A DNA stretch of 64,000 nucleotides from the IMG/VR virus record IMGVR_UViG_3300025853_000050; one strand, given 5' to 3'. This DNA is from a virus (lineage: Duplodnaviria; Heunggongvirae; Uroviricota; Caudoviricetes). Position 1 is the first letter of the stretch, and every line of letters begins with the position of its first letter. This document shows, piece by piece, positions 15,466-38,942 of the stretch. The notes under the pieces are model-generated. The model worked only from the letters and a program-made list of their open reading frames with translations. It did no database searches and was not told where the DNA came from. Made by a program: the position numbers and the translations under genes.

Positions 15466-15834
15466 TTACCACTCGTAGCGAAGGCCAATTGAAGTTTCAT
15501 TATATTCAACCCCAAGACCATTAGCTGCATCTGGATTACCAGCAAACTCAAATGCCATATACGCATCTACTTGAGGTAGAATTGCATAATCTGCACCAAA
15601 GGTAACATCACTCAAAGTCAAATCAACTTCTTGAGCTACTTGAAGTTCAGTTTCAGTCCACAAGCTAACTGAGTTGATATCATAAGCAACACCGCCTCCA
15701 AGTGTTACATCTTGGGCATTTACCCCATATTCTGCAAAAGCCTCACCAGACCAAACGCCTGGTTGCATTCCACCAGCCAAGGCTGCTGTTGTTGAAACTA
15801 CCAATGCAGTAGTTGCAATCAAAAATGTTTTCAT
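15466..15834 (-). CDS. small secreted outer-membrane-protein-like protein (signal peptide, acidic beta-rich, C-terminal aromatic)
   Basis: MKTFLIATTALVVSTTAALAGG signal peptide; alternating beta-strand-like pattern; ends LRYEW. Start taken at the internal Met of ORF 15466..15900. Confidence 0.4.
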   Translation of the reverse strand: MKTFLIATTALVVSTTAALAGGMQPGVWSGEAFAEYGVNAQDVTLGGGVAYDINSVSLWTETELQVAQEVDLTLSDVTFGADYAILPQVDAYMAFEFAGNPDAANGLGVEYNETSIGLRYEW

Positions 15835-16154
15835 GTTAAACCTTTCATAAAATTTTAGGAAATAATGCCACACTTCTGTTTCGAGGCAGTGGCCGCCCAA
15901 TGATTACGCAGCTAAGGCGTAATCAAATGCTTTGAAGTTATCGTTAGCATTTATTTTTAAATAGCGTATTCTACAGAGAACTTACTTATTACCAGTCGAA
16001 CCTGAATCGTCCCCATCAAAAGAGTACTGGACGTTTGGAAAATCTATTACACCAGGTTTATTCCAACCCTGATAACCAATACTCTTCTGGTGGAGACGAC
16101 GGGAACTGCCCCCGTGTCCTGAATAACTTTTAGAATCTGATAATCAAATCCGCT

Positions 16155-16200
16155 TATTATTTATATAGTATATTTAATTTTAGTTTAGAAGTAAAGGAAT
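16155..16200 (-). promoter_or_regulatory. T4-type early promoter (minus strand)
   Basis: Reverse complement reads CCTTTACTTCT..(17)..TATACT/TATAAATAAT upstream of the 15834 gene region. Confidence 0.35.
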
Positions 16201-21385: not shown

Positions 21386-21693
21386 CTAATGATAAAGAAA
21401 ATATTATGCAAAAATTGTCTGATCAAACTCAAGAATTTCAAGCATTAATCGAACAAGAAAAACAAGAAATGGACGCCTGGTGGGAAAGTCTTTCGAAGGA
21501 AGACCAAATGAAGGCATTCTACTCGGTAGTTAGCCGTATTGTAAAAGGTGAACTAGAAGACCAGGGATCATATCGTTACGTTTTATATAACGTATTTGGC
21601 TTTGATGCAGATGCATATATAATGGGAATGAATTGTGGATTTATGGCTTTACATAACGCAATCCCACTTGATGTGAAAAAGATGAGTGAATAA
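21382..21693 (+). CDS. hypothetical protein
   Basis: 103-aa ORF; stop/start overlap with its neighbours. Confidence 0.35.
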   Translation: MTNDKENIMQKLSDQTQEFQALIEQEKQEMDAWWESLSKEDQMKAFYSVVSRIVKGELEDQGSYRYVLYNVFGFDADAYIMGMNCGFMALHNAIPLDVKKMSE

Positions 21694-22076
21694 TGACTAA
21701 TAAAATTCCAGATAAGTCTTGGACCAAAAAGGATTTTAAGCTAGACTGGTTTTCAGGAACTGGTGCTGGTGGTCAACATCGAAATAAGCACCAAAACTGC
21801 GTTCGTATCACTCATATTGAGTCAGGTATTACTGTAATCGGACAGAACCATAGAGAAAGATCACGAAATCTAAAGGAAGCGTTTAATATACTTGCCAAGA
21901 AGGTTGTTCAGTGGTATTATGGAGAGGATCAAAAAAATCGGTTCAATGCCACGGATATTGTTAGGACTTACAATGAACCTGATAATCGTGTTGTTGATCA
22001 TAGAACTGGCAAGAAGGTTGCTTACAAGAACTTTGACCTAGAAGATATTATTGGAGAAATTTTAGCAGATGAATGA
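21693..22076 (+). CDS. class-I release-factor GGQ-domain protein (ArfB/YaeJ-like peptidyl-tRNA hydrolase)
   Basis: SGTGAGGQHRNKHQNCVRITHIESGITV matches the RF-1/ArfB GGQ catalytic motif (GGQHVN..VR..H). Size of about 127 aa is typical of ArfB. Confidence 0.6.
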   Translation: MTNKIPDKSWTKKDFKLDWFSGTGAGGQHRNKHQNCVRITHIESGITVIGQNHRERSRNLKEAFNILAKKVVQWYYGEDQKNRFNATDIVRTYNEPDNRVVDHRTGKKVAYKNFDLEDIIGEILADE

Positions 22077-22303
22077 AAAGGGTACGGTAATCTTGTCTTA
22101 GGTAATAATTCAACAAATAGCTAAAGCTTGATACAAAACTTTTAGTATAGTATAGACCCTTGGTTTTTATAATAAACTATTATTAATCGACCTTTTGATA
22201 CCAAAAAATTTCCCGGCGGTTTTTTTATATATAAGGCAAAGCGAAATCCCTTAAAGATGAGGTAAGGCTTTAGTTAAAAGAAAATCGTTTATCGCCTTGC
22301 TTT

Positions 22304-22412
22304 TCGTTTACTCTCGTTGGCGACCCTTCCTTCCCGTTGACTCTCGTTGAAGACTCTTCCTTCTCGTTGACTCTCGTTGAAGACTCTTCCTTCTCGTTGA
22401 CTCTCGTTGGCG
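22304..22412. repeat. tandem direct repeats, about 30-bp unit x3.5 (core CTCGTTGA)
   Basis: ctctcgttgaagactcttccttctcgttga repeated. Confidence 0.8.
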
Positions 22413-22460
22413 ATGCTTATACTCAAAAACTCCTAAACCCCCGAACCATATGTATTAATG

Positions 22461-22471
22461 GTGGGGGGGGG
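22461..22471. repeat. poly-G homopolymer tract (about 10 G)
   Basis: gtgggggggggtt. Confidence 0.8.
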
Positions 22472-22787
22472 TTAGAATAAAAATGACCCTAGCGCATGAT
22501 TCGTTCGTAAGCTTTAAGTATAGCGCTAGCGCAGCGCTACCGCTCAAGCGTTACTCGTGTATACTAATATATAATAAAAGTATCAGCTATATGGGCGAGA
22601 ATAAGAATACTACCCAAAATACAGCCCATCATAATAAAGAAACGAACCACGAAGAAATGGGATTCCATAACGTATCTCCTAAGAAACTTTTATATTATTT
22701 ACATTATACCGTATTTTACGGGGAACCGAAAGAACTTTTCTACGAAATTCAAATTATTATACGGGCACCGCGCTCGCATACAATTTG

Positions 22788-22918
22788 AGTATTTTATCGT
22801 TAGTTGGTTGGTTAGTTGTTGGTTGGTTAGTATATAGTTGGTTGGCAGTTGGTTGGTTAGTATATAGTTGGTTGGCAGTTGGTTGGTTAGTATATAGTTG
22901 GTTGGCAGTTGGTTGGTC
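22788..22918. repeat. tandem direct repeats, about 30-bp unit x3.5 (core GTTGGTTGG)
   Basis: agttggttggttagtatatagttggttggc repeated. Confidence 0.8.
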
Positions 22919-23004
22919 CAGCGCGCGAAGATTCTTAAGAAAACCTCTTTACTTCCAGGGCATCTTAGGGTACAATGGGGTATAGTTAATAAGGAGTTAA
23001 AGCT

Positions 23005-23253
23005 ATGTGGAATAAACCAACCCGTCGCTCTGTCGTCGCCTCTGTTATGTCTGCTAACGAAGGTCAGCCTATGGAAGCTGTCCTTCCCCTGATCGTTGAA
23101 GCTATTTATTCTAACGATCTCCAGAAAGACGGTTTTGGTATGAAGGAAGCTACCCGTGCATACCGTTCTGCCGTTCGTAATGGACGTGCTCCTGGTGAAA
23201 GCTATGCTGATACCAAGGCTAAGGTTACCGAACCCGAAATTGAGGTAGCCTGA
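23005..23253 (+). CDS. small early protein, paralog family A (MWNKPTRRSVVA...)
   Basis: 82 aa; one of four near-identical paralogs; PeSL cassette 1. Confidence 0.55.
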   Translation: MWNKPTRRSVVASVMSANEGQPMEAVLPLIVEAIYSNDLQKDGFGMKEATRAYRSAVRNGRAPGESYADTKAKVTEPEIEVA

Positions 23254-23369
23254 TTTAAGGGGGCTTCGGCCCCCTTTTTTTCGCTTCGCGCGCCGAAGAA
23301 TTCTAAGAAAACCTCTTTACTATCATGATCTTATAGGCTATACTTTAAAAATATATTAAAGGAGAGAAT

Positions 23370-23552
23370 ATGGAATATCCTAAAATTTGCTCAATGCATT
23401 CTGATCTAGAAGCTATGGTTGAGGCTGACGTTAGAGTATGGTGTGCGGAAAATAATCTATCGTTCAATAGTCCTTTTGCGGCATATCGTGCTTATTGGAA
23501 AGCTCAACTTGAAGAGTTTTACGACGATATCAAACACGCCTGGAAACAATAG
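23370..23552 (+). CDS. small early protein (unique)
   Basis: 60 aa; own cassette promoter and RBS GGAGAGAAT. Confidence 0.45.
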   Translation: MEYPKICSMHSDLEAMVEADVRVWCAENNLSFNSPFAAYRAYWKAQLEEFYDDIKHAWKQ

Positions 23553-23656
23553 GAAGGATCTTTTTGCCAGCGCGCCAGAAGAATTCTAAGAAAACCTCTT
23601 TACTTTCATGCCCGTTTAAGGTATAACATACCTATAGTTACTAAGGAGTTAAAGCT

Positions 23657-24166
23657 ATGTGGAACAAACCAACCCGTCGCTCGGTTGTTGCCGAAGTAAT
23701 GAACGCTAACACCGATAAGGCTATGGAAGACGTCCTTCCCCTGATCGTAGAAGCTGAATTGGAAGCCGGTTTTGAATGTGACCTTAAAGTCGCTCGTCGT
23801 CATTATGCTTCGGCTGTCCGTAACGGTCGAGCAACCGGAGTAATGCCGGAACGTAAAGTAGCTAGCCCAAAACCCCGTAAAAAGAAAACTAAAATTGAGG
23901 TAGCTACTACAGCAAGCCCAAAACAGAAAAAGTCTGAGACAAAAGAAACTATTACCGATCAGGAAAAGGATGCTGTTGTCCAGGCTAATATGAAGCGTCT
24001 AATGGATTACCGAGCAAAGCTAAAAGCTAAGGAACAAGACGAAGAAATCAAAAAAGAAGCCCAAGAACAAAAACGTTCGGACGATTACGATACTTCGTTT
24101 GACGATCCTTATGCTTCCCCTAGTTCGCTTTCTGTAGAACAAGTTTCTAACCTTACTGGATACTGA
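23657..24166 (+). CDS. family A paralog with Lys/Glu-rich C-terminal extension
   Basis: 169 aa; N-terminus MWNKPTRRSVVAEVMNANTDKAMEDVLPLIVEA shared with family A. Confidence 0.55.
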   Translation: MWNKPTRRSVVAEVMNANTDKAMEDVLPLIVEAELEAGFECDLKVARRHYASAVRNGRATGVMPERKVASPKPRKKKTKIEVATTASPKQKKSETKETITDQEKDAVVQANMKRLMDYRAKLKAKEQDEEIKKEAQEQKRSDDYDTSFDDPYASPSSLSVEQVSNLTGY

Positions 24167-24282
24167 TTAAAGGGGCTTCGGCCCCTTTTCTTTTGCCAGC
24201 GCGCTGAAGAATTCTAAGAAAACCTCTTTACTTCCATGGCGTCTTAGGGTACAATGACCTATAGTTAATAAGGAGTTCTGCT

Positions 24283-24429
24283 ATGATTAAGACCCGTGTT
24301 GCCTACGAAGCTGCTCTAGCCGTTTATCAGTCCTATCAGGATTTGGGCCGGACGTCTGGTAACGATTTCAAGTTTTTGTTTGAGCTTGCTTATCAAATCG
24401 GTGAATACGAACGTACCTATCTGAAATGA
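24283..24429 (+). CDS. small early protein, paralog family B (MIKTRVAYEAA...)
   Basis: 48 aa; below ORF-track cutoff; cassette promoter and RBS AAGGAG. Confidence 0.45.
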   Translation: MIKTRVAYEAALAVYQSYQDLGRTSGNDFKFLFELAYQIGEYERTYLK

Positions 24430-24538
24430 TCAACGGGGAGCTTCGGCTCCCCAGCGCGCTGAAGAATTCTAAGAAAACCTCTTTACTTCTATGCCCGTTT
24501 AGGGTATAACATACCTATAGTTACTAAGGAGTTCTACT

Positions 24539-24718
24539 ATGATTAAGACCCGTCTTGCCTACGAGGCCGCTTGTGCCGTTTATGACAAATATATTGCTGA
24601 GGGCCGGACGTCCGGTGACGACTCGAAGTTTTTGTCTGAGATATCCCGTCAACTCGCCGATTATGACCGTAGATGCGCCGAGGCTTTATTAAAAGCACTA
24701 GGATACGACTTTACATAA
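24539..24718 (+). CDS. family B paralog
   Basis: 59 aa: MIKTRLAYEAACAVYDKYIAEGRTSGDD... Confidence 0.45.
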   Translation: MIKTRLAYEAACAVYDKYIAEGRTSGDDSKFLSEISRQLADYDRRCAEALLKALGYDFT

Positions 24719-24832
24719 GGAAAGGGGCTTCGGCCCCTTTTTCGCGATGGCGCGCTCACGGATTCTAAGAAAACCTCTTTACTTCCACGGTAGCTTAGGG
24801 TAATATACTCTTATAACTTAAAGGAGCAAATT

Positions 24833-25063
24833 ATGTCTATCAAAAATTCTTATATTTCTGAAGGCTTCGACCTTAGCCACGAAAAAATGGGAATATATAT
24901 TGAGGAATTTGCTGATAATTCTACCCAGCTAACTATTGAGTTAGAAGTTATCCCTGGAGATTCTTATAATTCCCCAACTTTTACTTTCGCCGATCTTTAT
25001 GATGTAAAAAATGTTCGTGATATTCTGAACGAATATATTGAAATAGTTGAAAAAGAACTTTGA
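24833..25063 (+). CDS. small acidic early protein (unique)
   Basis: 76 aa; cassette 6. Confidence 0.45.
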   Translation: MSIKNSYISEGFDLSHEKMGIYIEEFADNSTQLTIELEVIPGDSYNSPTFTFADLYDVKNVRDILNEYIEIVEKEL

Positions 25064-25181
25064 GGAAAGGGGCTTCGGCCCCTTTTTTCTTACCCGAAGC
25101 GCGCCGAAGAATTCTAAGAAAACCTCTTTACTTCCACGGCAGCTTAGGGTATAATGACCTATAGTTAATAAGGAGCCTTAA

Positions 25182-25355
25182 ATGATGATTACCACTCGTG
25201 TTGCCTTTGAAGCCGCTTCTGCCGTTTATGACCGTTATATTAAAGAGTGCCGGGTCTACGGTGACGACTGGACGTTTTTGTGTGAGCTTGCCCGTCAACT
25301 CGCTGCGTTTGATTATGATTGGCGCCCAGCTGCTCTAGCTAATATTGATGAGTAA
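25182..25355 (+). CDS. family B paralog
   Basis: 57 aa: MMITTRVAFEAASAVYDRYIKECRVYGDD... Confidence 0.45.
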   Translation: MMITTRVAFEAASAVYDRYIKECRVYGDDWTFLCELARQLAAFDYDWRPAALANIDE

Positions 25356-25472
25356 GGAAAGGGGAGCTTCGGCTCCCTTTTTTCGCGATCGCGCGCTTGG
25401 CCATAAAAAACCTCTTTACTTCCATGCCCGTTTAAGGTATAATGTACCTATAGCTTTTAAGGAGACCTGCTG

Positions 25473-25670
25473 ATGAATAAAAATAATTACGGCAATCTAG
25501 TGTTAGGTGATATCGACCGTCCAGCCGGGGAGTGCCTTCGCTTTCGCCGGGATGAGAGCGGTGCGTGGTTTGAATATGTGCCACCACAGAATACAGGCCA
25601 AAATACCAAAATCTTTAAAATGGATAATCCAGCCGTAGTAAAAATGCTAATACGTATGTTGAAAGAATAA
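25473..25670 (+). CDS. small early protein (unique)
   Basis: 65 aa; cassette 8. Confidence 0.45.
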   Translation: MNKNNYGNLVLGDIDRPAGECLRFRRDESGAWFEYVPPQNTGQNTKIFKMDNPAVVKMLIRMLKE

Positions 25671-25773
25671 GGAAAGGGGAGCTTCGGCTCCCAGCGCGCT
25701 GGCCATAGAAAACCTCTTTACTTCCATAGCAGCATAGGGTATAATGTACCTATAGCTTTTAAGGAGTTCTGCT

Positions 25774-25947
25774 ATGAAAACCATTGCCGCCATCCGCCGT
25801 GAGATTACAAATCACATCACTGACAAAATTATGAGCAATCCGATGCACAAGGATTCGGACCGGATGACTATCCGTAAACGTACACTACAAGAATTGAAAG
25901 GTATCGACGAAGAATCCCTTCGTAGAATCCATACTAGCATAGCATGA
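25774..25947 (+). CDS. small basic early protein (unique)
   Basis: 57 aa: MKTIAAIRREITNHITDKIMSNPMHKD... Confidence 0.4.
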   Translation: MKTIAAIRREITNHITDKIMSNPMHKDSDRMTIRKRTLQELKGIDEESLRRIHTSIA

Positions 25948-26070
25948 TCCAACGGGGAGCTTCGGCTCCCCAGCGCGCTCGCGGATTTTTTAAGAAAACT
26001 TAAGAAAACCTCTTTACTTCCATGGCAGCTTAGGGTATAACATACCTATAGTTAATAAGGAGTTAAAGCT

Positions 26071-26319
26071 ATGTGGAATCGTCCTACTCGCCGTTCGGTT
26101 GTTGCCTCTGTTATGTCTGCTAACGAAGGCCAGCCTATGGAAGCCGTTTTGCCTTTGATCGTGGAAGCTATCCATTCCGAAAACTTAGAGAAAGATGGCT
26201 TTGGCATTAAGGAAGCTACCCGTGCCTATCGTTCGGCTGTTCGCAACGGTCGTGCTCCTGGTGAAAGCTATGCTGATTCTAAAGCTAAGGCTGCCGAACC
26301 CGAAATTGAGGTAGCCTGA
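26071..26319 (+). CDS. family A paralog
   Basis: 82 aa, near identical to 23005..23253. Confidence 0.55.
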   Translation: MWNRPTRRSVVASVMSANEGQPMEAVLPLIVEAIHSENLEKDGFGIKEATRAYRSAVRNGRAPGESYADSKAKAAEPEIEVA

Positions 26320-26450
26320 TTTAAGGGGGCTTCGGCCCCCTTTTCTTTTGCCAGAGCGCGCCGGAGGATTCTTAAAAAACCTAAGAAAACCTCTTTACTT
26401 CCATGGCAGCTTAGGGTACAATGGGGTATAGTTAATAAGGAGTTAAAGCT

Positions 26451-26699
26451 ATGTGGAATCGCCCTACTCGCCGTTCGGTTGTCGCTGGAGTAATGAACGC
26501 TAACACCGACAAGGCTATGGAAGATGTCCTTCCCCTGATCGTGGAAGCTATCCATTCCGAAAACTTGGAAAAGGATGGATTCGGTATTAAGGAAGCTACC
26601 CGTGCTTATCGTTCGGCTGTCCGTAATGGCCGGGCAACCGGTGAAAGCTTTGCCGATACTAAGGCCAAAGCCTCCGAACCCGAAATTGAGGTAGCCTGA
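26451..26699 (+). CDS. family A paralog
   Basis: 82 aa. Confidence 0.55.
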   Translation: MWNRPTRRSVVAGVMNANTDKAMEDVLPLIVEAIHSENLEKDGFGIKEATRAYRSAVRNGRATGESFADTKAKASEPEIEVA

Positions 26700-26810
26700 T
26701 TTAAGGGGGCTTCGGCCCCCTTTTCTCCATCGCGCGCTGGGCCATAGAAAACCTCTTTACTTCCATGGCAGCTTAGGGTATAATGTACCTATAGCTTTTA
26801 GGGGTTCGCT

Positions 26811-26882
26811 ATGACTACTTTTTTCGTGTTCGTTATCATTGGCCTTGTAGCTTATGATCTGTTTGTACTGGAGAACTATTAA
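26811..26882 (+). CDS. small hydrophobic peptide (23 aa)
   Basis: MTTFFVFVIIGLVAYDLFVLENY; cassette 12. Confidence 0.3.
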   Translation: MTTFFVFVIIGLVAYDLFVLENY

Positions 26883-26971
26883 TGACTTATGCTGGAGTGT
26901 TTGTCTATTTCACCGTTTTGTTTATCGGGATCGCCGTAATGCTATTGATTGATATCAATTACCGAGAAAAA
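26882..26971 (+). CDS. small hydrophobic peptide (29 aa)
   Basis: MTYAGVFVYFTVLFIGIAVMLLIDINYREK; start overlaps the previous stop (TAATGA). Confidence 0.3.
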
Positions 26972-27082
26972 TAAACGTAAAGCTGGAGGGATTTCCTCCA
27001 GCGCGCCAGGCCATATAAAACCTCTTTACTTCCATGGCAGCTTAGGGTATAACATACCTATAGGTAATAAGGAGTTAAATCT

Positions 27083-27304
27083 ATGGGTTTGCTGATGTGT
27101 TTGAATGATATTAATATACGTCGTGCCTATGAGAATGGTACGTTGGTTTGTGAACGATTGGTTGGTCGTCTCGGGCCGTTTATCGCCATTGGTGATGGTT
27201 ATGGCATTTTATGCGTAGCTGATAATGAGTATGATGCAATTGATCGTATTGAGCAGGCGATTGGAAAAGATTTGGAGAAAATTCCATGGGTTAAAAATAA
27301 ATGA
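27083..27304 (+). CDS. small early protein (unique)
   Basis: 73 aa; cassette 13. Confidence 0.45.
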   Translation: MGLLMCLNDINIRRAYENGTLVCERLVGRLGPFIAIGDGYGILCVADNEYDAIDRIEQAIGKDLEKIPWVKNK

Positions 27305-27405
27305 GAAATGGGAGCTTCGGCTCCCAGCGCGCCAGGCCATAAAAAACCTCTTTACTTCCATGGCAGCTTAGGGTATAATGGGGTTTAATCTTATGGAGAA
27401 GTTTT

Positions 27406-27654
27406 ATGAAACTCGGCGATGTAATGGAAACTTTTTCTTGGCAGCCTGAAATTGAACCTTCATTAAAAACTTTGGAAACCAGTTCAGATTTATTTGAACG
27501 GATTAATGCCAACAGCACTTTAATGTCTGTGGCCTTAAAAGTTTCAAACGGAGACGCTTTGCTAGCTGCGGATATCATGGGTCAAGTTCATAAGGTGCTT
27601 GGGCGCGCCGTCGGCATATTCATATTTTATGACCGAAGCGCGCGATCGCCATAA
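27406..27654 (+). CDS. small early protein (unique)
   Basis: 82 aa; cassette 14. Confidence 0.4.
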   Translation: MKLGDVMETFSWQPEIEPSLKTLETSSDLFERINANSTLMSVALKVSNGDALLAADIMGQVHKVLGRAVGIFIFYDRSARSP

Positions 27655-27842
27655 AAAAATTAATGAATTCAACGGATTACCCCTTTACTTTCAGCCCCTA
27701 AACGGTTAAGATATAAAACTAAGTTAAACGCCACGAGTTTCGAAATGAACTAATCGGTTCCATCGTGTTCGAAGAAAGAAAACAACTCATTTCCGAAATA
27801 TCCTTTCGATGTAACGGATCCTTCCTAACCCAGCGTTTAACG

Positions 27843-27965
27843 ATCGAGAACCAAGAATCCGGAACCAGGATTCGCGAACCAAGAATGCGCAACCAAGAAT
27901 CTACAACCAGGAATCTAACAGGAATGCGCAACCAAGATTCTAGAACCAAGAATGCGCAACCAAGA
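27843..27965. repeat. tandem repeats, about 14-15-bp unit x8 (AACCAAGAATGCGC)
   Basis: gaaccaagaatgcgcaaccaagaatctacaaccagg... Confidence 0.8.
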
Positions 27966-28207
27966 ATCCAACATATTATACAATACAACACACTATATTA
28001 CAATGTATAATAAGGTCTAGCTGTTAGGCAATTATCATTAGACCTTATTATACCCATTATGCATTAAACATACATTACTATTGAATTGAATTATGAAAAC
28101 TTAATTTTAGAAATTATTAAAAACGTATAGTGGATTGTATATTACACTTCCGGAATCATTGTTATAATAGAAAAGTATGGGCGGCTTTTGACCGCCTTTT
28201 TTTACAC

Positions 28208-28330
28208 CATGTTGTCAGGGAAGTTGGTCAAGGAAGTTGGTCAAGGAAGTTGGTCACGAGAGTTGGTCAGCCATGTTGGTCACGAGAGTTGGTCAGCCAT
28301 GTTGGTCACGAGAGTTGGTCAGCCATGTTG
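28208..28330. repeat. tandem repeats, about 13-bp unit x9 (core GTTGGTCA)
   Basis: gaagttggtcaaggaagttggtcacgagagttggtcagccatgttggtcac... Confidence 0.8.
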
Positions 28331-28344
28331 GTACGTTACACATA

Positions 28345-28812
28345 TCAATCTCCCAGAGACTTTAGAATATTCATTTTTAACAATCTACCGTTTTTCTGAT
28401 GTTCCTCAGCTTCTTTCAATGTTGAGAAATTTCGATCATGCATTCGATTAATCTTTGATACTTTTTCCTCAGCTTCTTTTCTATCAGTGAAATACTCAAC
28501 AGTTCCATGTTCGTTAATATCTTCAATTGTGATATACTGATAATCACATTTATCGTCAACTAGATAAACCCGATCAAGAAGTTCATATTTATCCCCAGAA
28601 TTACCAATATCACCTTCAATGTTTGTTGCGGTTTTGCCAGTCACTGTTAGTTCTTTTATCTTTCCAACCCACGTTTTGGCTGTATACCGAAACCACACCT
28701 TACCATCAAACTCAGCGAATTCTTTGTCAGGGGTATCATCAAACATCCGGCACTCTTCGATAACCCGATAAACAGTATCACCAATTTTCAAATTATTAAA
28801 ATCAAACATCAT
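28345..28812 (-). CDS. hypothetical protein
   Basis: 155-aa ORF. Confidence 0.35.
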   Translation of the reverse strand: MMFDFNNLKIGDTVYRVIEECRMFDDTPDKEFAEFDGKVWFRYTAKTWVGKIKELTVTGKTATNIEGDIGNSGDKYELLDRVYLVDDKCDYQYITIEDINEHGTVEYFTDRKEAEEKVSKINRMHDRNFSTLKEAEEHQKNGRLLKMNILKSLGD

Positions 28813-29215
28813 TTGGTCGCTTTGTTAGTGTGAACTTCCAATCGCTATGGTCTGGTAGATTATCGAACAATACGATATGATCAATCCGCCGATAATCTTC
28901 CCCACCAGAAACCCACATGTCGTCGTAGTTTTCACTAATTTTTGGTTTTTCCGGGTACATAAACACTTCTAGATTCCGATCCATAGCTGCCCATTGCCAT
29001 CTCCGGTCGATCACTTCCCATGGAATACGCAATTCAATATTTGGCTTGACACGATAAACATTATCTAGATACCAATTGCATTTTTCGCGAACATCATGCC
29101 AACCATTAGTATAACGTTGAATTGTCTTACCATCCCGTTCAGCCATCATAAGATGACGAACATGAGCTGCATGCATATCACCTAGTGCTAGCTTGCTTTC
29201 ATTACGTACAGTCAT
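28802..29215 (-). CDS. hypothetical protein (Trp-rich)
   Basis: 137-aa ORF. Confidence 0.35.
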   Translation of the reverse strand: MTVRNESKLALGDMHAAHVRHLMMAERDGKTIQRYTNGWHDVREKCNWYLDNVYRVKPNIELRIPWEVIDRRWQWAAMDRNLEVFMYPEKPKISENYDDMWVSGGEDYRRIDHIVLFDNLPDHSDWKFTLTKRPNDV

Positions 29216-32184: not shown

Positions 32185-32226
32185 ATTATAGGCTAAGATC
32201 GTATGATAGTAAAGAGGTTTTTTATG
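32185..32226 (-). promoter_or_regulatory. T4-type early promoter with conserved leader
   Basis: AAAACCTCTTTACTATCAT..TATAAT..GTGTATAAATTGATAAAGG on the minus strand. Confidence 0.5.
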
Positions 32227-32231
32227 GTTTT

Positions 32232-32387
32232 TTATAAATTATTTTTCCTGACTCGCAGGTCTTCGATGGCGGCTTTTTTTGACCGAAACGGTCCGCCCAC
32301 AAACCGACCGTTTTGTCTCACATAGTAAAGGTATTTCCCACGGCCAGGAAGGAACCAGACTCGTTCCTTAAACAACGTATAATCCAT
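32232..32387 (-). CDS. small basic protein
   Basis: Start at MDYTLFKE; 51 aa. Confidence 0.25.
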   Translation of the reverse strand: MDYTLFKERVWFLPGRGKYLYYVRQNGRFVGGPFRSKKAAIEDLRVRKNNL

Positions 32388-32388
32388 A

Positions 32389-33174
32389 TCAATCAACCAC
32401 AAAACCAGAAGTGTCTTTACGAGCTTTACCCTTGGCGTACAAAGCCACGATAGAGCCATGAGGATCAAGGTGACGGATATCCGTATCATCACCGTCCACC
32501 ACAGGAAGTCCCATGAAAGTTTCCCCGTTCTCTAACAAACGCTGCACAATAGCACGCTCACGAAACACGACAGCAATACGATAGCCAGCGCTGACAGCTT
32601 GCTCGTTCACGTGTTGATAAAGGGGAACACCGGAATAGGAAAAAGTCAAATCGTAGTTTGATGGGATATTCTTACGATTAGTGAGTTTGGTATAATCGTA
32701 GAACTGAACTTCAGGAAACTCCTGAGGAATACCAAAATTCTCCCAACGAATATCGCTCGTGCCGTTCAAGCGGATCAAAGGAACATATCCGCTCTTCGTG
32801 ATAGACTTGACACAACGACGAATTTCCTTGCGAAGGAGTACCAGAAATTCGTCACGATATTGTTGGAAGAATAGGGTTTTACGGAGGCGACCAATTTGAA
32901 CGTTGGACATGGCGCCCATGCCAGCGGTGTTCAAACACGGAGCCTCACACTGAGCCAAAGCTGCTGTCGGGCACATATTCTCACCGGAACCACGCCCGGG
33001 AGTCAGATACATGATAGCAGTCTTGAAACCTTTTTTCTGACCTTTGATGGTTTTCGCATTACCATCAATCGCCAAAAGTTGTTCAGGTTTCTTGGAGAAC
33101 AACTCTCGGTATTTCGGAGTTGTTTCAATTTGCTCCCGGATTTTAGAGGGAACTTTGGTCAGATCATAAATCAT
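32389..33174 (-). CDS. conserved phage protein with Cys cluster (CPTAALAQCEAPC)
   Basis: 261-aa ORF. Confidence 0.35.
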   Translation of the reverse strand: MIYDLTKVPSKIREQIETTPKYRELFSKKPEQLLAIDGNAKTIKGQKKGFKTAIMYLTPGRGSGENMCPTAALAQCEAPCLNTAGMGAMSNVQIGRLRKTLFFQQYRDEFLVLLRKEIRRCVKSITKSGYVPLIRLNGTSDIRWENFGIPQEFPEVQFYDYTKLTNRKNIPSNYDLTFSYSGVPLYQHVNEQAVSAGYRIAVVFRERAIVQRLLENGETFMGLPVVDGDDTDIRHLDPHGSIVALYAKGKARKDTSGFVVD

Positions 33175-33204
33175 CTTATAAACCTTTAATCAATTTATAC
33201 ACGT

Positions 33205-33246
33205 ATTATAAGCTAAGCTGGCATGATAGTAAAGAGGTTTTTTATG
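33205..33246 (-). promoter_or_regulatory. T4-type early promoter with conserved leader
   Basis: Same consensus as at 32185. Confidence 0.5.
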
Positions 33247-33454
33247 TTTTTTTATAAACTGATGTGAACCCAACTCCCATGGCAGGGCATACAGTTATTT
33301 TCTCTGGGAGGCCATTCACATCTTTTTCGCCGCTTTCTCCGCAAATAAAATATGTTCCCGATACTTCTGGCCTTAAATGTTTAAATATTTTACGATAAAG
33401 ATTAAATAATTTATATTCTTCTTCTGTTATTTCAACCATCACCAGCTCGCCCAA
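33242..33454 (-). CDS. hypothetical protein
   Basis: 70-aa ORF. Confidence 0.25.
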   Translation of the reverse strand: MGELVMVEITEEEYKLFNLYRKIFKHLRPEVSGTYFICGESGEKDVNGLPEKITVCPAMGVGFTSVYKKT

Positions 33455-33855
33455 TAGTAAACATCATTGCCCTCAAAAACTTTGTTCCCAAAAAGGTTTT
33501 CAATTCGTTCAACAGTATATTCCAATTGGTCGTAGTAGTAATCGTCGTATGACGTATTACCAAAAAAGAAACCACTTTGTGAGGGAAGAAGATCTTCTGC
33601 TAGCTGTCGGTCGGCCAAAATTTTCTGACAAATATCTTGTAGATTTTCCAGAATCTCTTTGGTGACCAAGAATGGTTCACAATTATCGACTCCTGCCAGG
33701 TCCACAAAATATTTATGGATAGCATTGGCCTTACGCCAATACGCTTCTTCAATATAGTTACAACCAGAATTCTCGTAGCGAGGAAACTCCCCTTCACTAA
33801 CAGTAACCAAATGCATATCTAAACCCATGATATAACTCCTTATCAATTTATACAC
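33439..33855 (-). CDS. hypothetical protein
   Basis: 138-aa ORF directly behind an early promoter. Confidence 0.35.
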   Translation of the reverse strand: MYKLIRSYIMGLDMHLVTVSEGEFPRYENSGCNYIEEAYWRKANAIHKYFVDLAGVDNCEPFLVTKEILENLQDICQKILADRQLAEDLLPSQSGFFFGNTSYDDYYYDQLEYTVERIENLFGNKVFEGNDVYYWASW

Positions 33856-33857
33856 GT

Positions 33858-33890
33858 ATTATAAGCTAAGCCGGTATGATAGTAAAGAGG
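33858..33890 (-). promoter_or_regulatory. T4-type early promoter with conserved leader
   Basis: AAAAACCTCTTTACTATCATACCGGCTTAGCTTATAAT ACGTGTATAAATTGATAAGGAG. Confidence 0.5.
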
Positions 33891-33952
33891 TTTTTTTATG
33901 TTTTTTTATAAACTGATGTGAACTCAACGCTCATGACCGGAGAATATAAAGA

Positions 33953-33976: not shown

Positions 33977-34939
33977 TTATTGGAATTTACCGTTAGTGAC
34001 ACCAAATTCAGGAGCAACACGTTCTGCATCTGGAAGACTAATCAATCCAAGGTCAGCGAGATATCCATCAGGCCCCCACGTAGATTCATCAGTAAATTCA
34101 TTTACGTAATCTTCAACACCATCTATAACGGTATTATGATCATTTTTTACATAAAACCACAACGAACGAGAAACAGGATAAATGCCGTCGGCAATATTAT
34201 CGTAGGTTGGTTCAACACCATTGATAACCGCACCTTTAATTTTCTCATAATTTTGATCTAAGAATGAAAATCCAGCAATACCAAAAAGATTGTCATCTTT
34301 TGAGATTTTCTCGACAATAAGATTATCGTTTTCTCCGGCTTCAATATAGGCACCATCTTCTCGAAGTTCAACATGTAGGTCAAAAGCCTTGGCAATTGGT
34401 TCCATCACCAATTCTTCAAAGGCATCTCGTGTACCAGACGAAGGTGGTGGGCCCATAACAGCAATTGGAATATCGGGCAGGCCTGGTCGAACATCACTCC
34501 AATTGGTATAGGGATTTGGTACGGTTTCTCCGGCATATTTGATCGTTGAGTTCAGGGCAAAGAACAAATCTTCGTTGGTAATCTCCATATCATAACCGCC
34601 GATATTTCCGATCAAAACAATACCGTCATAACCAATTTTATATTCAGTTACTTCGGTCACGCCATTATCCCGACAAAGTGCTACCTCTTTATCTTTGATA
34701 CGTCGAGAAGCATTGGTAATGGTAGGAGTATCTTCATCAACACCGGAACAAAATAGTTTGAATCCTCCTCCGGAACCAGTAGATTCAATTGTTGCTTTCA
34801 TTCCAGTTTTGTTAGAAAACTGTTCGACCACGGCCGAAGCAAAGGGGAATACTGTAGATGATCCAACAATACGAATATCATTCGCACTTGCGGTCAATGC
34901 AGTAGTTGTTAGTAGGATTGTTGCTAGGATTGTTTTCAT
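33977..34939 (-). CDS. pstS: phosphate ABC transporter substrate-binding protein PstS (auxiliary metabolic gene)
   Basis: Signal peptide MKTILATILLTTTALTASA; IRIVGSSTVFPFASAVVEQF...STGSGGGFKLFCSG matches PstS family motifs. Confidence 0.7.
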   Translation of the reverse strand: MKTILATILLTTTALTASANDIRIVGSSTVFPFASAVVEQFSNKTGMKATIESTGSGGGFKLFCSGVDEDTPTITNASRRIKDKEVALCRDNGVTEVTEYKIGYDGIVLIGNIGGYDMEITNEDLFFALNSTIKYAGETVPNPYTNWSDVRPGLPDIPIAVMGPPPSSGTRDAFEELVMEPIAKAFDLHVELREDGAYIEAGENDNLIVEKISKDDNLFGIAGFSFLDQNYEKIKGAVINGVEPTYDNIADGIYPVSRSLWFYVKNDHNTVIDGVEDYVNEFTDESTWGPDGYLADLGLISLPDAERVAPEFGVTNGKFQ

Positions 34940-37665: not shown

Positions 37666-37739
37666 TGGATGCGGAAGTAGGATTTGCACCTACGATCTTC
37701 TGCTTATGAGACAGAAATGTTACTACTACACCATTCCGC
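37666..37739 (-). tRNA. tRNA-Met/fMet/Ile2 (anticodon CAT)
   Basis: Cloverleaf drawn by hand; anticodon loop CTCATAA; CCA encoded. Confidence 0.6.
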
Positions 37740-37748
37740 TTTAAAACT

Positions 37749-37852
37749 ATCTTAAGAGATACACTGGTAAGATTTGCACTTACAATCGTTATCGTCTCGC
37801 ATTTTACTGCAACGGCGTTACTAGTTAGCCCACAGTGTATCTTTTAAGATAG
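37749..37852 (-). other. tRNA-like element enclosed by a 20-bp inverted repeat (possible pseudo-tRNA)
   Basis: ctatcttaagagatacactg at 37749 pairs with cagtgtatcttttaagatag at 37833; the interior has a T-arm-like GTAAGTGCAAATCTTAC. Confidence 0.25.
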
Positions 37853-37865
37853 TTTTGCCTAGCCT

Positions 37866-38175
37866 GAGATTATAGCATAAGATGGAAGTCTTTTGTAGCA
37901 TTATCGTAAGCCTTGCGAGCCACGTTCTCTACGTATCCACTGCATTGTGTGGAACACTAATACAGTATCTTCCAACGCTGCCTTTTTATACAGGTGGCAT
38001 TTCCTGTGTCATACGTCACTACTCGTCTTTCAATCTTCCGCCTGCCTTGCGAGCAGTTCAACTCCGCTAAGAGTTTACGTTTTCTTTCCAAACAAACACA
38101 TCCGCCTTGCGAGCTTCAATGCACCATATTCCCTTACGAGTATGGTATTAAGCGTCTTTAATGACGTACCGGAGT
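37866..38175 (-). ncRNA. structured non-coding stretch inside the tRNA operon (candidate stable RNA, cf. T4 RNA C/D)
   Basis: No ORF; three copies of GCCTTGCGAGC; lies between tRNA genes. Confidence 0.25.
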
Positions 38176-38189
38176 AGACTTTGCTTTTT

Positions 38190-38262
38190 AAACAAATGCA
38201 GGATTTGAACCCACTACCTAAAGATTATGCGTCTTTTGCTCTACCAAATGAGCTAATTTGCG
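38190..38262 (-). tRNA. tRNA-like, anticodon CAT with atypical G33 (possible pseudogene)
   Basis: Good D-arm GCTC-ATTTGGTA-GAGC; T-loop TTCAAAT; anticodon loop CGCATAA. Confidence 0.35.
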
Positions 38263-38289
38263 AACCTACTGTGATGTGCCACTCCAGTT

Positions 38290-38745
38290 GCTTCATATCC
38301 TTTTGGGATACAAAATACAACACATCACCTGTCTTTCTCCTTGCGGGATACTAAACGATACTTCAAGTTTCCAGGTCCTACCCTTTCAACTCTTGTAATG
38401 CTACTTTGCCTTTCCACGCTAATGGTCAAACTCAGTAACTACTCATTGAGTGTAAGATTCGGTAGTTTGGTTAATCGTAGCTTCACCACCACAGTCAATT
38501 AGACCTCACCGATTGGCTCCGGTCACATCCTTTCGGACTACAATTCTACCTTGCTCCACTATTGCCATTCTACTGACAACGAGTTGCTTTCGGCTATCAA
38601 CCGAGTCAACTCCACTCTGAGCTTGTATAGAAGGACCATTGCTGGCGGCAGTTTATAGGAAACCTGCCTTTGGGACTGTTACCAGTCTTACCCTATTCCC
38701 ATGACCCGAAGATCATGGGACAAGCGAGCTATACCTCGCAATTTA
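38290..38745 (-). ncRNA. structured non-coding stretch (several hairpins, UUCG-type loops) inside the tRNA operon
   Basis: Hairpins cccatgacccgaagatcatggg, ggcagtttataggaaacctgcc and gtcacatcctttcggac; no plausible ORF. Confidence 0.25.
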
Positions 38746-38749
38746 TTTA

Positions 38750-38825
38750 TGGTGCTGTTAGTAGGAATCGAACCCACAACCTGCTGATTACAAAACAGCT
38801 GCTCTTCCAATTGAGCTATAACAGC
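38750..38825 (-). tRNA. tRNA-Thr (TGT)
   Basis: GCTGTTA acceptor, D GCTC-AATTGGAA-GAGC, anticodon loop TTTGTAA, T-arm GTGGG-TTCGATT-CCTAC, CCA encoded. Confidence 0.7.
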
Positions 38826-38839
38826 GAATTATTCGTTTT

Positions 38840-38914
38840 GCTGGATAGGTTGGACTCGAACCAACAACCTGCTGATTAACAGTCAGCTGCACTGCCATTG
38901 TGCTACTATCCAGC
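38840..38914 (-). tRNA. tRNA-Asn (GTT)
   Basis: Anticodon arm GCTGA-CTGTTAA-TCAGC; T-arm GTTGG-TTCGAGT-CCAAC; embedded in a 16-bp inverted repeat. Confidence 0.55.
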
Positions 38915-38942
38915 AAAACGAACAAAATTCTTATTAAAAAAA

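Follow-up and report, generated by a model that had tools for sequence, protein, structure and literature searches.

Introduction

PeSL (promoter-early stem-loop) cassettes are known in the T4-like phages RB49/phi1, T4/PST and KVP40/nt-1 (Arbiol et al. 2010, PMC2839356; Comeau et al. 2014, PMC4122927). Reporter assays have shown activity of the PeSL promoters and terminators, recombination between one PeSL and another yields deletions and mini-circles, and the published consensus of the T4/PST promoters is TTTACW-N17-TAYWAT (PMC2839356, PMC4122927).

The locus analyzed here lies in a window of 64,000 nucleotides (the whole stretch of DNA that was analyzed; virus record IMGVR_UViG_3300025853_000050). 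Like a PeSL, its repeated element is a composite intergenic sequence of ~100 nt, in which a stem-loop with a GGGG...CCCC stem and an A/T-rich region are combined with a sigma70-like -35/N17/-10 promoter, an SD sequence and a start codon, and these elements flank small ORFans of a T4-type genome. The first-pass annotation had called the units PeSL-like, and the unit order, the T4/PST hexamer consensus and the T4-type genome all fit this identity. Judged from the letters of the DNA, every PeSL criterion, including the T4/PST promoter consensus, is represented in the array. We consider it probable that 14 PeSL-type cassettes follow one another here without a break, in a T4-type phage that is uncultured and akin to cyanomyoviruses, with the function and evolution proposed below.

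Results

Structure of the array

The array extends from 22919 to 27720 on the + strand; 14 of its units are complete and a further one is decayed. The order within a unit is a GC hairpin with a CUUCGG loop, a GCGCGC box, an A-rich upstream (UP) region, TTTACT-N17-TATAAT, a short SD leader and a small ORF. The repetition reported by the first-pass annotation was borne out: the core motif AACCTCTTTACTTCC, allowing up to three mismatches, gave 25 matches in the window versus 2.39 +/- 1.61 in shuffles. With up to two mismatches, 14 matches were found on the + strand from 22942 to 27359, and a decayed 15th copy of the core lies at 27678. AGCGCGC gave 19 matches versus 1.22 expected. Assembly error does not account for the array; JGI and ENA assemblies, which are mutually independent, carry it at no less than 98.3% identity. 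The complete cassettes and their cargo ORFs are as follows, with promoters and terminators as predicted.

22919..23253, + strand: cassette 1; regulatory part 22919-23004 with GCGCGC, UP type 1, TTTACT-N17-TACAAT and leader; cargo o01 (23005-23253, +), 82 aa, family A
23254..23552, + strand: cassette 2; predicted terminator hairpin GGGGGCTTCGGCCCCC with T-run, GCGCGC, TTTACT-N17-TATACT; cargo o02 (23370-23552, +), 60 aa, singleton, TAG stop
23553..24166, + strand: cassette 3; no hairpin; GCGCGC, UP type 1, spacer type CATGCCCGTTTA; cargo o03 (23657-24166, +), 169 aa, family A in full-length form
24167..24429, + strand: cassette 4; predicted terminator hairpin with T-run, GCGCGC, promoter; cargo o04 (24283-24429, +), 48 aa, family B
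24430..24718, + strand: cassette 5; hairpin GGGGAGCTTCGGCTCCCC without U-tract, GCGCGC, promoter; cargo o05 (24539-24718, +), 59 aa, family B
24719..25063, + strand: cassette 6; predicted terminator hairpin with T-run, GCGCGC, promoter with -10 TAATAT; cargo o06 (24833-25063, +), 76 aa, singleton
25064..25355, + strand: cassette 7; predicted terminator hairpin with T-run, GCGCGC, TTTACT-N17-TATAAT; cargo o07 (25182-25355, +), 57 aa, family B
25356..25670, + strand: cassette 8; predicted terminator hairpin with T-run, GCGCGC, UP type 2 (GGCCATAAAAAACC), TATAAT; cargo o08 (25473-25670, +), 65 aa, singleton
25671..25947, + strand: cassette 9; hairpin without U-tract, GCGCGC, UP type 2; cargo o09 (25774-25947, +), 57 aa, singleton
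25948..26319, + strand: cassette 10; hairpin without U-tract, GCGCGC, UP with 10-nt duplication; cargo o10 (26071-26319, +), 82 aa, family A
26320..26699, + strand: cassette 11; predicted terminator hairpin with T-run, GCGCGC, duplicated UP; cargo o11 (26451-26699, +), 82 aa, family A, mosaic of o10-like and o03-like sequence
26700..26974, + strand: cassette 12; predicted terminator hairpin with T-run, GCGCGC, UP type 2, weak SD (AGGGG); cargos o12a (26811-26882, +), 23 aa, and o12b (26882-26974, +), 30 aa, tiny hydrophobic ORFs
26975..27304, + strand: cassette 13; different hairpin (CTGGAGGGATTTCCTCCAG), GCGCGC, UP type 2; cargo o13 (27083-27304, +), 73 aa, singleton
27305..27654, + strand: cassette 14; hairpin without U-tract, GCGCGC, UP type 2, TATAAT; cargo o14 (27406-27654, +), 82 aa, singleton

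Alignment of the 14 intergenic units revealed three invariant elements, the GCGCGC box, CC-CTTTACT and part of the -10. Over the 42-nt promoter core, pairs of units are on average 83% identical; the promoter of cassette 2 is the most divergent. The finer description in the first-pass annotation needs some correction. The GCGCGC part of its AGCGCGC box is invariant, but the leading A is present in only 10 of the 14 units. Its UP-like sequence GAAGAATTCTAAGAAAACC is found in units 1-7, while units 8, 9, 12, 13 and 14 carry GGCCATAnAAAACC and units 10 and 11 duplicated variants. The leader ending in TATAGTTAATAAGGAGTTAAAGCT is exact in three units (u01, u10 and u11) and varied in all others. A single ORF per unit is the rule except in unit 12, where the two tiny ORFs overlap; the ORF sizes (23-169 aa) agree with those proposed. 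A hairpin, claimed for every unit, was found at 12 of the 13 inter-ORF junctions and is missing before o03; cassette 1 has none since it is the first unit of the array.

Eleven of these 12 hairpins have a C(UUCG)G loop on a G+C stem. The stems alone are at ~ -12 to -16 kcal/mol, with MFEs of the folding windows up to -22, and covariation was seen in three of seven hairpin stem pairs. A U-tract is present in seven hairpins only. Since it is missing in the other five and one junction is bare, insulation between the units may be partial.

Cargo ORFs and exchange between cassettes

The cargo is made up of two families of paralogues, A and B, and seven unrelated ORFans. No cargo matched a Pfam or PHROG family. 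Family A has no close homologue beyond this population among 5.8 billion proteins, while outside homologues of ~160 aa exist in other phages. The family A paralogues are old (dS about 1; 0.9-1.3) and under purifying selection (omega about 0.1; dN/dS 0.08-0.11); dN/dS of the family B paralogues is 0.43-0.77.

Could the array be the product of plain tandem gene amplification, in which one unit was copied repeatedly, the cargos diverged beyond recognition and the promoters stayed similar by constraint only, with no special role in recombination or gene acquisition? Families A and B make up 7 of the 15 cargo ORFs, in 7 of the 14 cassettes; the UP subtypes cluster by position, which is compatible with local tandem duplication; o13 is faintly similar to o05/o07 (E = 0.04-2.4); and the array is invariant in nearly every assembly. 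We nevertheless regard this explanation as unlikely. The seven singleton cargos resemble neither one another nor families A and B to any detectable degree, and they are of diverse kinds (Lys-rich and helical, hydrophobic mini-peptides, acidic). The existence of family A homologues in other phages indicates that at least this cargo has an independent history. Synonymous sites of the paralogues are near saturation, whereas the flanking 42-100 nt, including the promoter cores of the A and B paralogue pairs, are 71-95% identical. An identical 30-nt terminator block, moreover, is found in units 5 and 10, after the unrelated cargos o04 and o09.

The flanking regions also show mosaicism incompatible with one tree. 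In the PHI test of the regulatory segments, the observed value was 0.313 versus 0.523 +/- 0.032 in permutations, none of 5000 being as low, and 323 of 666 site pairs fit no single tree. The regulatory segments are thus mosaics, and terminator, UP and spacer types reassort among units. Within the cargo, o11 is 92% identical to o10 over nt 1-36, 94% identical to o03 over nt 37-99 and 84% identical to o10 beyond nt 99; it carries a conversion tract of ~60 nt from an o03-like donor.

The most direct observation concerns the metagenome contig L240 (ENA ERZ27275062), a single MEGAHIT contig ending 360 nt past the junction, in which 1,012 bp are deleted. Exactly three cassettes, those of o10, o11 and o12a/b, are lost. 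The hairpin, GCGCGC and UP of unit 10, the left crossover partner, are fused to the leader and o13 of unit 13, the right partner, and the join lies within a stretch of ~47 nt identical between the two units, inside the promoter core. This contig also has two private SNPs, both in unit 1. These patterns show that the cassettes recombine with each other. The paralogue families, the recombination signal, the conversion tract in o11 and the three-cassette deletion support the duplication and gene shuffling suggested in the first-pass annotation.

Promoter type

A sigma70 scan picked up ten units as TTTACT-17-TA(T/C)AAT. The core is also located upstream of tRNA clusters, tmRNA and many minus-strand genes of the phage, which suggests that it is the general host-RNAP promoter type of this phage. 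There is another interpretation, that the element is read by a phage-modified or phage-encoded transcription apparatus (a middle or late class, or a phage sigma factor or activator), in which case it would be no early promoter of the host-sigma70 type and the array would fall outside the immediate-early class. Conservation indeed exceeds the hexamers, taking in AAAACCTC ahead of the -35, a GGG that precedes the -10, and the leader, and an activator or a repressor could bind at the GCGCGC box. T4-like cyanophages are not known to have the classical MotA/AsiA middle-mode system, and promoter classes in this group are therefore less well defined, which also counts for this interpretation. It seems quite improbable to us, however. 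The hexamers and the 17-nt spacing are those of canonical sigma70 and of the T4/PST early consensus, and tRNA and tmRNA genes appear to be driven by the same core. T4-type late promoters (TATAAATA) have no -35, and TATAAAT boxes are found in leaders of the dispersed promoters but in none of the array leaders.

Array end, border repeats and the GCGCGC box

The end of the array and four tandem repeats (TRF) around it are as follows.

27600..27720, + strand: array end; long hairpin from two GCGCGC boxes (27603 and 27638), then the decayed 15th cassette
22296..22409, unstranded: left outer repeat; 30-nt unit x3.8, CTTCCTTCTCGTTGACTCTCGTTGAAGACT
22801..22917, unstranded: left inner repeat; 30-nt unit x3.7, GTTGGTTGGCAGTTGGTTGGTTAGTATATA
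27849..27969, unstranded: right inner repeat; 14-nt unit x8.9, AACCAAGAATCCGC
28214..28332, unstranded: right outer repeat; 13/26-nt unit, GTTGGTCAnnnnn

The decayed cassette reads GCCATAAAAAAA..CCCCTTTACTTTC..TAAGAT and has neither SD nor ORF. The 133 nt downstream showed no significant structure (z = -0.95) and no Rfam match. The left inner repeat adjoins the first GCGCGC box and shows a 60-nt copy-number polymorphism in two contigs (L092 and L096). The left outer repeat, which is one 30-nt unit shorter in four metagenome variants, may or may not belong to the array. The right inner repeat has an AACCAA core, oriented opposite to the GTTGGTT repeat on the left, and the right outer repeat has a copy-number polymorphism of 26 nt. 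A distant phage (L112) carries a TGACCAAC core with a 13-nt period beside its promoter array, as in the right outer repeat.

GCGCGC occurs 18 times in the 64 kb. Sixteen of these occurrences lie within 22921-27643, one per unit and two in the closing hairpin, and none was found beside the dispersed promoters of the window. The distance from the box to the -35 varies from 17 to 34 nt, so that the box seems tied to the module junction, not to promoter geometry, and terminator and UP types reassort across it. An integron-like platform delimited by the border repeats, in which the palindrome serves a dedicated recombinase or nuclease as its crossover or cleavage site, is nevertheless highly improbable: the L240 crossover occurred ~30-80 nt downstream of the box in a long identical stretch, as expected from homologous recombination, Pfam revealed no integrase, recombinase or homing-endonuclease domain in neighbouring genes, every cassette brings a promoter of its own, which integron cassettes do not, and a 6-bp site alone is too short to specify a recombinase. 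The PeSL model itself accounts for neither the invariant GCGCGC box nor the border tandem repeats.

Phage identity and natural variation

The phage is of T4 type, with a gp5 OB domain, gp53 and gp32. Its gp32 shares about 60% identity with its counterparts in P-SSM2, S-SRM01 and S-CREM1, and the closest group is the cyanomyoviruses; it is not a relative of KVP40, nt-1 or phi-pp2. The same array was present in more than 10 independent metagenome assemblies. Except for L240, no cassette was gained or lost in ~20 contigs from many samples, and only five SNPs were found in the array, which is therefore stable on the sampled time-scale. No phages of intermediate divergence were found, and the test of the observation that defines PeSLs, indels between close relatives, is thus limited to one population.

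Discussion

In the PeSL-type reading, each cassette is probably a self-contained transcription unit, for which we infer promoter and terminator activity, start sites, early timing and a cargo function. A host sigma70-type promoter (A-rich UP, TTTACT, 17-nt spacer, TATAAT) would initiate a leader of ~25 nt with a strong SD, one small orphan protein would be made per cassette, and the CUUCGG-loop GC hairpin would terminate or stabilise the transcript ahead of the next promoter. Such self-contained early-type units would thus probably yield a burst of ~15 small proteins right after infection; if so, these might have functions in host takeover, anti-defence or exclusion. The regulatory modules of ~100 nt are probably held similar by functional selection and gene conversion and, being alike, would serve as portable homology for the phage recombination machinery. 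Recombination at the modules would then duplicate, delete, convert and reassort cassettes, with homologous recombination presumably the sole mechanism.

The array shares with PeSLs the degraded 'half' copies at its edge and a deletion with endpoints in two tandem cassettes. It differs in having 14 consecutive units, whereas the longest described PeSL run has six ORFs (nt-1), in accordance with the unusually dense tandem use noted at first pass. It is also far more uniform (83% mean identity of the core, identical stretches up to ~47 nt), and it adds between hairpin and UP an invariant GCGCGC palindrome not described for PeSLs. Only in this array does the promoter come with hairpin and GCGCGC, the bare version being genome-wide; the array is flanked by copy-number-variable tandem repeats; and the lineage is cyanomyovirus-like and uncultured.

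Hairpins with CUUCGG tetraloops were reportedly described by Tuerk et al. in 1988 in T4 intercistronic regions. Those of the array, candidate terminators and/or 3' exonuclease barriers, likewise have C(UUCG)G loops, G+C stems and intercistronic sites in a T4-type genome, but belong to a repeated composite cassette. Lambdoid morons (Hendrix and colleagues; PMC2839356) are also single accessory genes with their own promoter and terminator. Morons, however, have no conserved flanking sequences, and their insertion is thought to be by illegitimate recombination (PMC2839356), whereas in the array it is the flanks that are conserved and recombine, and the units stand in tandem with a common orientation. 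The analogy with integrons was already made by the PeSL authors (PMC2839356, PMC4122927). Small single-gene cassettes, tandem and co-oriented, and repeated palindrome-containing junctions are common to both, but here no integrase was found in neighbouring genes, a promoter is present in each cassette instead of a single Pc promoter, and the observed crossover lies in extended homology, not at the palindrome. The 'ORFanage' of the T4-like cyanophage S-PM2 resembles the array in being an unbroken stretch of small ORFans, and it can be spontaneously lost (PMC4503421). Its authors found promoter and stem-loop motifs sparse there and judged PeSL involvement unlikely (PMC4503421); in the present array, a cassette flanks every ORF.

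Architecture of the repeated units

Direct reading of 22500-28200, together with mechanical repeat finding, showed repeated, co-oriented intergenic units on the plus strand. The motif AACCTCTTTACTTCC, with up to three mismatches, was matched 25 times in the window against 2.39 ± 1.61 times in shuffled sequences; the 14 good copies span 22942-27359, and a decayed one follows at 27678. AGCGCGC was found 19 times for 1.22 expected, and 16 of the 18 GCGCGC sites in the 64 kb are inside the array. The 14 stop-to-start intervals were extracted as units and then aligned. These counts and the alignment bear out the array of about 14 cassettes proposed in the first-pass annotation.

From a stop codon, each unit runs through a G+C-rich hairpin looped by CTTCGG, in some units with a T-run, to the GCGCGC box and an A-rich upstream (UP) region, followed by the -35 element CTCTTTACT, a 17-nt spacer, TATAAT and a leader of about 25 nt with AAGGAG before the ATG. 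The promoter TTTACT-N17-TA(T/C)AAT, or a close variant, is present in 14/14 units, and in all of them AATTCTAAGAAAACC or CCATAnAAAACC directly adjoins the -35 element on its 5' side. By sequence, the hexamers and their spacing are those of a canonical sigma70 promoter; a non-sigma70 promoter class was considered as an alternative. Thirteen units carry the Shine-Dalgarno sequence GGAG at a distance of 6-11 nt from the ATG; that of unit 12 is AGGGG.

The units are less uniform than had been claimed. Instead of one UP sequence there are two subtypes: units 1-7 have GAAGAATTCTAAGAAAACC, of which units 10 and 11 show duplicated variants, and units 8, 9 and 12-14 have GGCCATAnAAAACC; the leader, too, has several variants. 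The hairpin ascribed to every unit is present at 12 of the 13 inter-ORF junctions, being missing before o03 (the ORF of unit 3), and only seven hairpins carry a U-tract. Compensatory changes at 3/7 pairs of the stem have kept up the hairpin. The single tiny ORF per unit gives way in unit 12 to two overlapping mini-ORFs (23 and 30 aa).

No long inverted repeats joining both array borders were found. A search of 21.5-29 kb against Rfam (E <= 1) gave only partial hairpin matches to terminator ends of unrelated sRNAs. The ORF-less stretch 3' of the decayed fifteenth promoter was considered as a non-coding RNA and set aside, its structure not being significant (z = -0.95). The array was present in more than 10 assemblies of independent origin, and we therefore rejected the idea of an assembly artefact.

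Promoters outside the array

The core CTTTACT-N17-TATAAT, after ATAAAAA(A/C)CT, recurs at about 17 further places, mostly on the minus strand, where it precedes tRNA clusters, the tmRNA gene and protein genes. Neither the hairpin nor the GCGCGC box was found at these dispersed copies in the 64-kb window. The promoter is thus genome-wide, and the full cassette is confined to the array. The dispersed copies at 30862, 32214, 33234, 33887, 40124, 54545 and others (minus strand) have the leader GTGTATAAATTGATAAGGAG, which contains a T4-late-like TATAAAT, whereas the array leaders (CCTATAGTTAATAAGGAG) do not. Expression may thus be both early and late for the dispersed genes, and early only for those of the array. 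In addition, an extended upstream stretch of about 100 nt (GAGTTCACATCAGTTTATAAAAAAACATAAAAAAACCT...) is homologous among the promoters at 32214, 33234 and 33887 (32214-33950, minus strand), which would make them another, smaller family of cassettes, lacking both hairpin and GCGCGC.

Cargo proteins

BLASTP among the 15 ORFs placed o01, o03, o10 and o11 in one paralogue family (family A) and o04, o05 and o07 in another (family B); the eight ORFs of the other seven cassettes (o02, o06, o08, o09, o12a/b, o13 and o14) are singletons. Pairs within family A have dS of 0.9-1.3, dN of 0.08-0.14 and omega of about 0.1, and omega in family B is 0.43-0.77. From these values we conclude that both families consist of translated genes and that the duplications are old.

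A Pfam and PHROGs scan of 10 cargo ORFs (9/15 array ORFs), in which o10, o11 and o04 were represented through paralogues only and o12a/b were left out, gave nothing significant. A word-indexed search of 5.8 billion proteins found no close homologue of family A beyond this phage population. A profile search of 1.84 billion representatives gave about 36 distant relatives, mostly of 150-180 aa; these outside homologues, too, had no significant match in Pfam or PHROGs, and tblastn with one of them against cultured phages gave no match. Since the relatives align with o03 across both its N-terminal domain and its C-terminal helix motif, o03 is taken as the full-length form, and o01, o10 and o11 as forms with the N-domain only. 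The AlphaFold model of o03 (mean pLDDT 84) predicts a confident N-terminal three-helix bundle (about 97), then a linker that is Lys-rich and disordered, and finally a long helix. Foldseek with this model found nothing at E <= 0.001 in PDB or BFVD; a winged-helix DNA-binding likeness was a weak Foldseek resemblance only and was not used.

One ORF, o02, is the sole array ORF ending in TAG and also the sole one with no hairpin after it. Elsewhere, at 62846-62921 (plus strand), ARAGORN called an amber-suppressor tRNA (anticodon CTA), which it labels 'Pyl'. This tRNA suggests that the phage reads through or recodes TAG.

Exchange between cassettes

The 42-nt promoter core has a mean identity of 83% over all 91 unit pairs. 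The first-pass annotation had proposed that the regulatory flank is better conserved than the ORFs; the core is 71-95% identical where the cargos of the units differ at 42-65% of synonymous sites. The regulatory parts are conserved above neutral sites, and they are mosaic. Among informative-site pairs in the aligned units, 323/666 are incompatible with one tree, and the pairwise homoplasy index is 0.313 against 0.523 ± 0.032 in permuted data, none of 5000 permutations being so low. Segment typing showed terminator, UP, spacer and leader types in differing combinations, the UP types being grouped by position rather than by cargo. An identical 30-nt block of stop codon, hairpin and GCGCGC (repeat family D13) stands 3' of the unrelated o04 and o09. 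Within the cargo, o11 matches o10 at 92% identity over nt 1-36 and at 84% beyond nt 99, and o03 at 94% over nt 37-99; this middle stretch of o11 is a conversion tract. Plain tandem amplification was considered as an alternative origin of the array.

The array was found by exact-protein look-ups on many JGI and ENA metagenome contigs. Ten of them, aligned over 22000-29000, are at least 98.3% identical, with five SNPs and no indels inside the array; length variation is confined to the flanking tandem repeats (30, 60 and 26 nt). An apparent cassette replacement in two contigs, L098 and L099 (a 68-aa ORF for the 82-aa o11), proved to be merely a different start-codon call.

The sole array indel among about 20 contigs was found in a 4,592-bp contig of ERZ27275062 (L240). 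L240 follows the array from the left flank through the hairpin, GCGCGC box and duplicated UP of unit 10, and crosses within AAAACCTCTTTACTTCCATGGCAGCTTAGGGTATAACATACCTATAG to the leader of unit 13 and o13, so that 1,012 bp, or three cassettes (o10, o11 and o12a/b), are missing. Both endpoints are in cassettes, and the crossover lies within their common promoter core. L240 also has two private substitutions in unit 1, G>T at 22958 and C>T at 22973, which change CAGGG to CATGG and TACAAT to TATAAT, the array consensus; it is therefore regarded as a distinct haplotype. The first promoter may thus be a weakened one in the common haplotype, or conversion may have acted on L240. A chimera is disfavoured, since the repeat of about 47 nt is far below the assembler's final k of 141. 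The deletion is supported by a single contig, which ends 360 nt past the junction, and an assembly error is possible.

The paralogue families, the homoplasy index, the segment mosaics, the o11 tract and the L240 deletion together support the cassette-mediated duplication and shuffling that had been proposed. The conserved regulatory modules would then double as substrates for homologous recombination, for which less than 50 bp of homology suffices in the T4 system, as cited in the PeSL (promoter-early stem-loop) literature.

The phage and its genome

No near-identical phage record was found. The window codes for gp5 (OB domain), gp53, gp32 and T4 Y07C-like and spanin-like proteins. The gp32 is about 60% identical to that of T4-like cyanomyoviruses (P-SSM2, S-SRM01 and S-CREM1; Kyanoviridae), and the gp32/baseplate neighbourhood resembles that of S-SRM01, where no comparable cassette array was found. 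On the basis of these genes, the gp32 identity and the neighbourhood, we regard the phage as an uncultured T4-type phage related to Kyanoviridae; it is no relative of KVP40/nt-1. Estuarine Synechococcus would be the likeliest host.

About 25 tRNA genes lie at 37666-48699 (minus strand) and 61281-61356 (plus strand), several clusters being behind the same CTTTACT-N17-TATAAT promoter type. Two tRNA calls are unusually long, tRNA-Lys at 6588-6682 (95 nt, within an ORF) and tRNA-Ile-TAT at 39206-39297 (92 nt); possible explanations are a false positive or an intron. ARAGORN also called a permuted two-piece tmRNA at 15813-16182 (minus strand; tag peptide ANDNFKAFDYALAA), preceded by an array-type promoter (CTTTACT at 16196). 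About 0.8 kb 5' of the array, at 21693-22076 (plus strand), is the gene for a 127-aa RF-1-domain protein with a GGQ motif, ArfB/peptidyl-tRNA-hydrolase-like, whose homologues are common in IMG/VR (252 confirmed loci). The phage would thus code for two predicted ribosome-rescue components. The following genes fit a cyanophage-like lifestyle:

43093-45527 (-), 33977-34939 (-): NAMPT and bifunctional NMNAT/Nudix (NAD salvage), a PstS-like phosphate-binding protein, and Band-7 next to the PstS-like gene

Search for related arrays

Neither megablast nor sensitive blastn found a homologous array in 50,697 phage records; all matches were of 30-40 nt and due to chance. When IMG/VR was scanned for an exact 17-mer, 11 contigs matched once each, with no more motif copies; we estimate this to be about chance level for a collection of that size. 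A search of IMG/VR for loci with family A gave no match. The motif is absent from all 80 loci screened near homologues of the RF-1-domain gene that flanks the array; the best of these loci (L012, 65% identity) is without repeats and not syntenic. When metagenome DNA was scanned for GCGCGC-N(10-40)-AACCTCTTTACT, there were, among the matches listed, chance single matches unrelated to the window.

The distant family A homologues that could be placed, in the loci L112-L115, sit in small-ORF arrays. Their ORFs have a repeated promoter and leader of their own, TTGAyTTTAATTCGGG..GTAnnAT..ATATTGATAAGGAG; hairpins are mostly absent and GCGCGC is absent. Two runs with a promoter per ORF in these uncultured phages are:

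L112, 4100-7700: promoter-per-ORF run
L115, 1-1600: promoter-per-ORF run

Such arrays may be widespread in this phage group. In L112 (IMG/VR 3300037517_001803), a 13-nt tandem repeat, GTGACCAACAnnC, lies at 3505-3610, directly 5' of the promoter-cassette array; its core TGACCAAC and period are those of the right border repeat of our array at 28214-28332, when the latter is read on the minus strand.

The G+C content of 22800-27400 is 41-47%, against a window average of 37%, and L112 reads noticeably G+C-richer, as an impression and not a calculated value. This hints that the array was acquired from a G+C-richer phage.

The GCGCGC box and the border repeats

The GCGCGC palindrome is invariant in the array units, at a variable distance of 17-34 nt from the -35 element, and accompanies the promoter in the array only. 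Four tandem repeats stand at the borders of the array:

22296-22409: left border, tandem repeat
22801-22917: left border, tandem repeat
27849-27969: right border, tandem repeat
28214-28332: right border, tandem repeat

They are the strongest non-coding tandem repeats of the whole 64-kb window, exactly at both borders, and the only length-polymorphic sites among metagenome variants (copy-number changes of 30, 60 and 26 nt). With GTTGGTT in the left repeat and AACCAAG in the right, the AACCAA core is inverted between the two borders. The repeats could serve as iterons, as an origin or as an insulator. The convergent gap that separates the array from a minus-strand gene block contains two further elements, at 28005-28053 and 28179-28197: an inverted repeat of 15 nt, perfect and with a loop of 19 nt (GTATAATAAGGTCTA / TAGACCTTATTATAC), and a hairpin resembling a bidirectional terminator.

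These features raise the idea that the array is a delimited 'cassette platform' beyond a PeSL run, which we consider quite unlikely. The palindrome could then be the target of a candidate nuclease, methyltransferase or regulator, and such a protein could stimulate or gate cassette exchange or coordinate array shut-off, the family A proteins with their three-helix N-domain being candidate binders of the box; the border repeats could be iteron-like binding arrays that delimit or insulate the platform, or a replication origin. The extra box and the polymorphic repeats stand outside the PeSL reading as concrete oddities.

Comparison with known systems

For an integron-like, site-specific system with GCGCGC at its centre, the evidence is unfavourable: the L240 crossover falls within the promoter core, and there is no recombinase nearby. 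In contrast to integrons, where a tyrosine-recombinase integrase and attI adjoin promoterless cassettes under one common promoter, the flanking genes here have no recombinase domain (Pfam), and every cassette has its own promoter.

The resemblance to PeSLs noted in the first-pass annotation is supported feature by feature. At the sequence level, the units have everything that defines a PeSL (PMC2839356, PMC4122927). The genome is that of a T4-type myovirus, with Gp5_OB, Phage_gp53 and gp32 Pfam domains and T4 Y07C and T4 spanin domains nearby. The predicted sigma70-like early promoter, with its spacer of about 17 nt, fits the published T4/PST PeSL consensus TTTACW-N17-TAYWAT, and the sequence 5' of -35 is present in all units. 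PeSLs contain a stable stem-loop, typically GGGG...CCCC, and the array hairpin, with its covarying pairs, occupies the same place within the element. On its 3' side each element ends, as in PeSLs, with the Shine-Dalgarno sequence and the start codon of the next gene. The cargo consists of small orphan ORFs, in what may be a variable (hyperplastic) region of the kind where PeSLs occur. Cassettes stand at the endpoints of the one array indel, that of the single contig L240.

Since all these features are present and the sole natural indel has the predicted structure, we read the region as a PeSL-type array. Each cassette would be an insulated transcription unit driven by host RNA polymerase and probably immediate-early, its promoter and terminator activity and timing being inferred. 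About 15 predicted early proteins of the array would be candidates in screens for host takeover or anti-defence, and the cassette would be a compact promoter-terminator module, predicted to be strong and insulated. The mosaic pattern, the conversion tract and the three-cassette deletion are natural evidence of recombination between cassettes, which supports the view that conserved regulatory cassettes give T4-type phages a general means of testing, duplicating and losing small accessory genes.

Until now, PeSLs were documented only for T4-like phages of enterobacteria and Vibrio, three pairs in all, and the authors of the cyanophage 'ORFanage' study thought a PeSL role unlikely there (PMC4503421). 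The present array places the device in an uncultured cyanomyovirus-related phage, a lineage where PeSLs had not been shown. The tandem use is as unusually dense as had been remarked: with 14 cassettes in a row, the array is the densest and most uniform PeSL example yet described.
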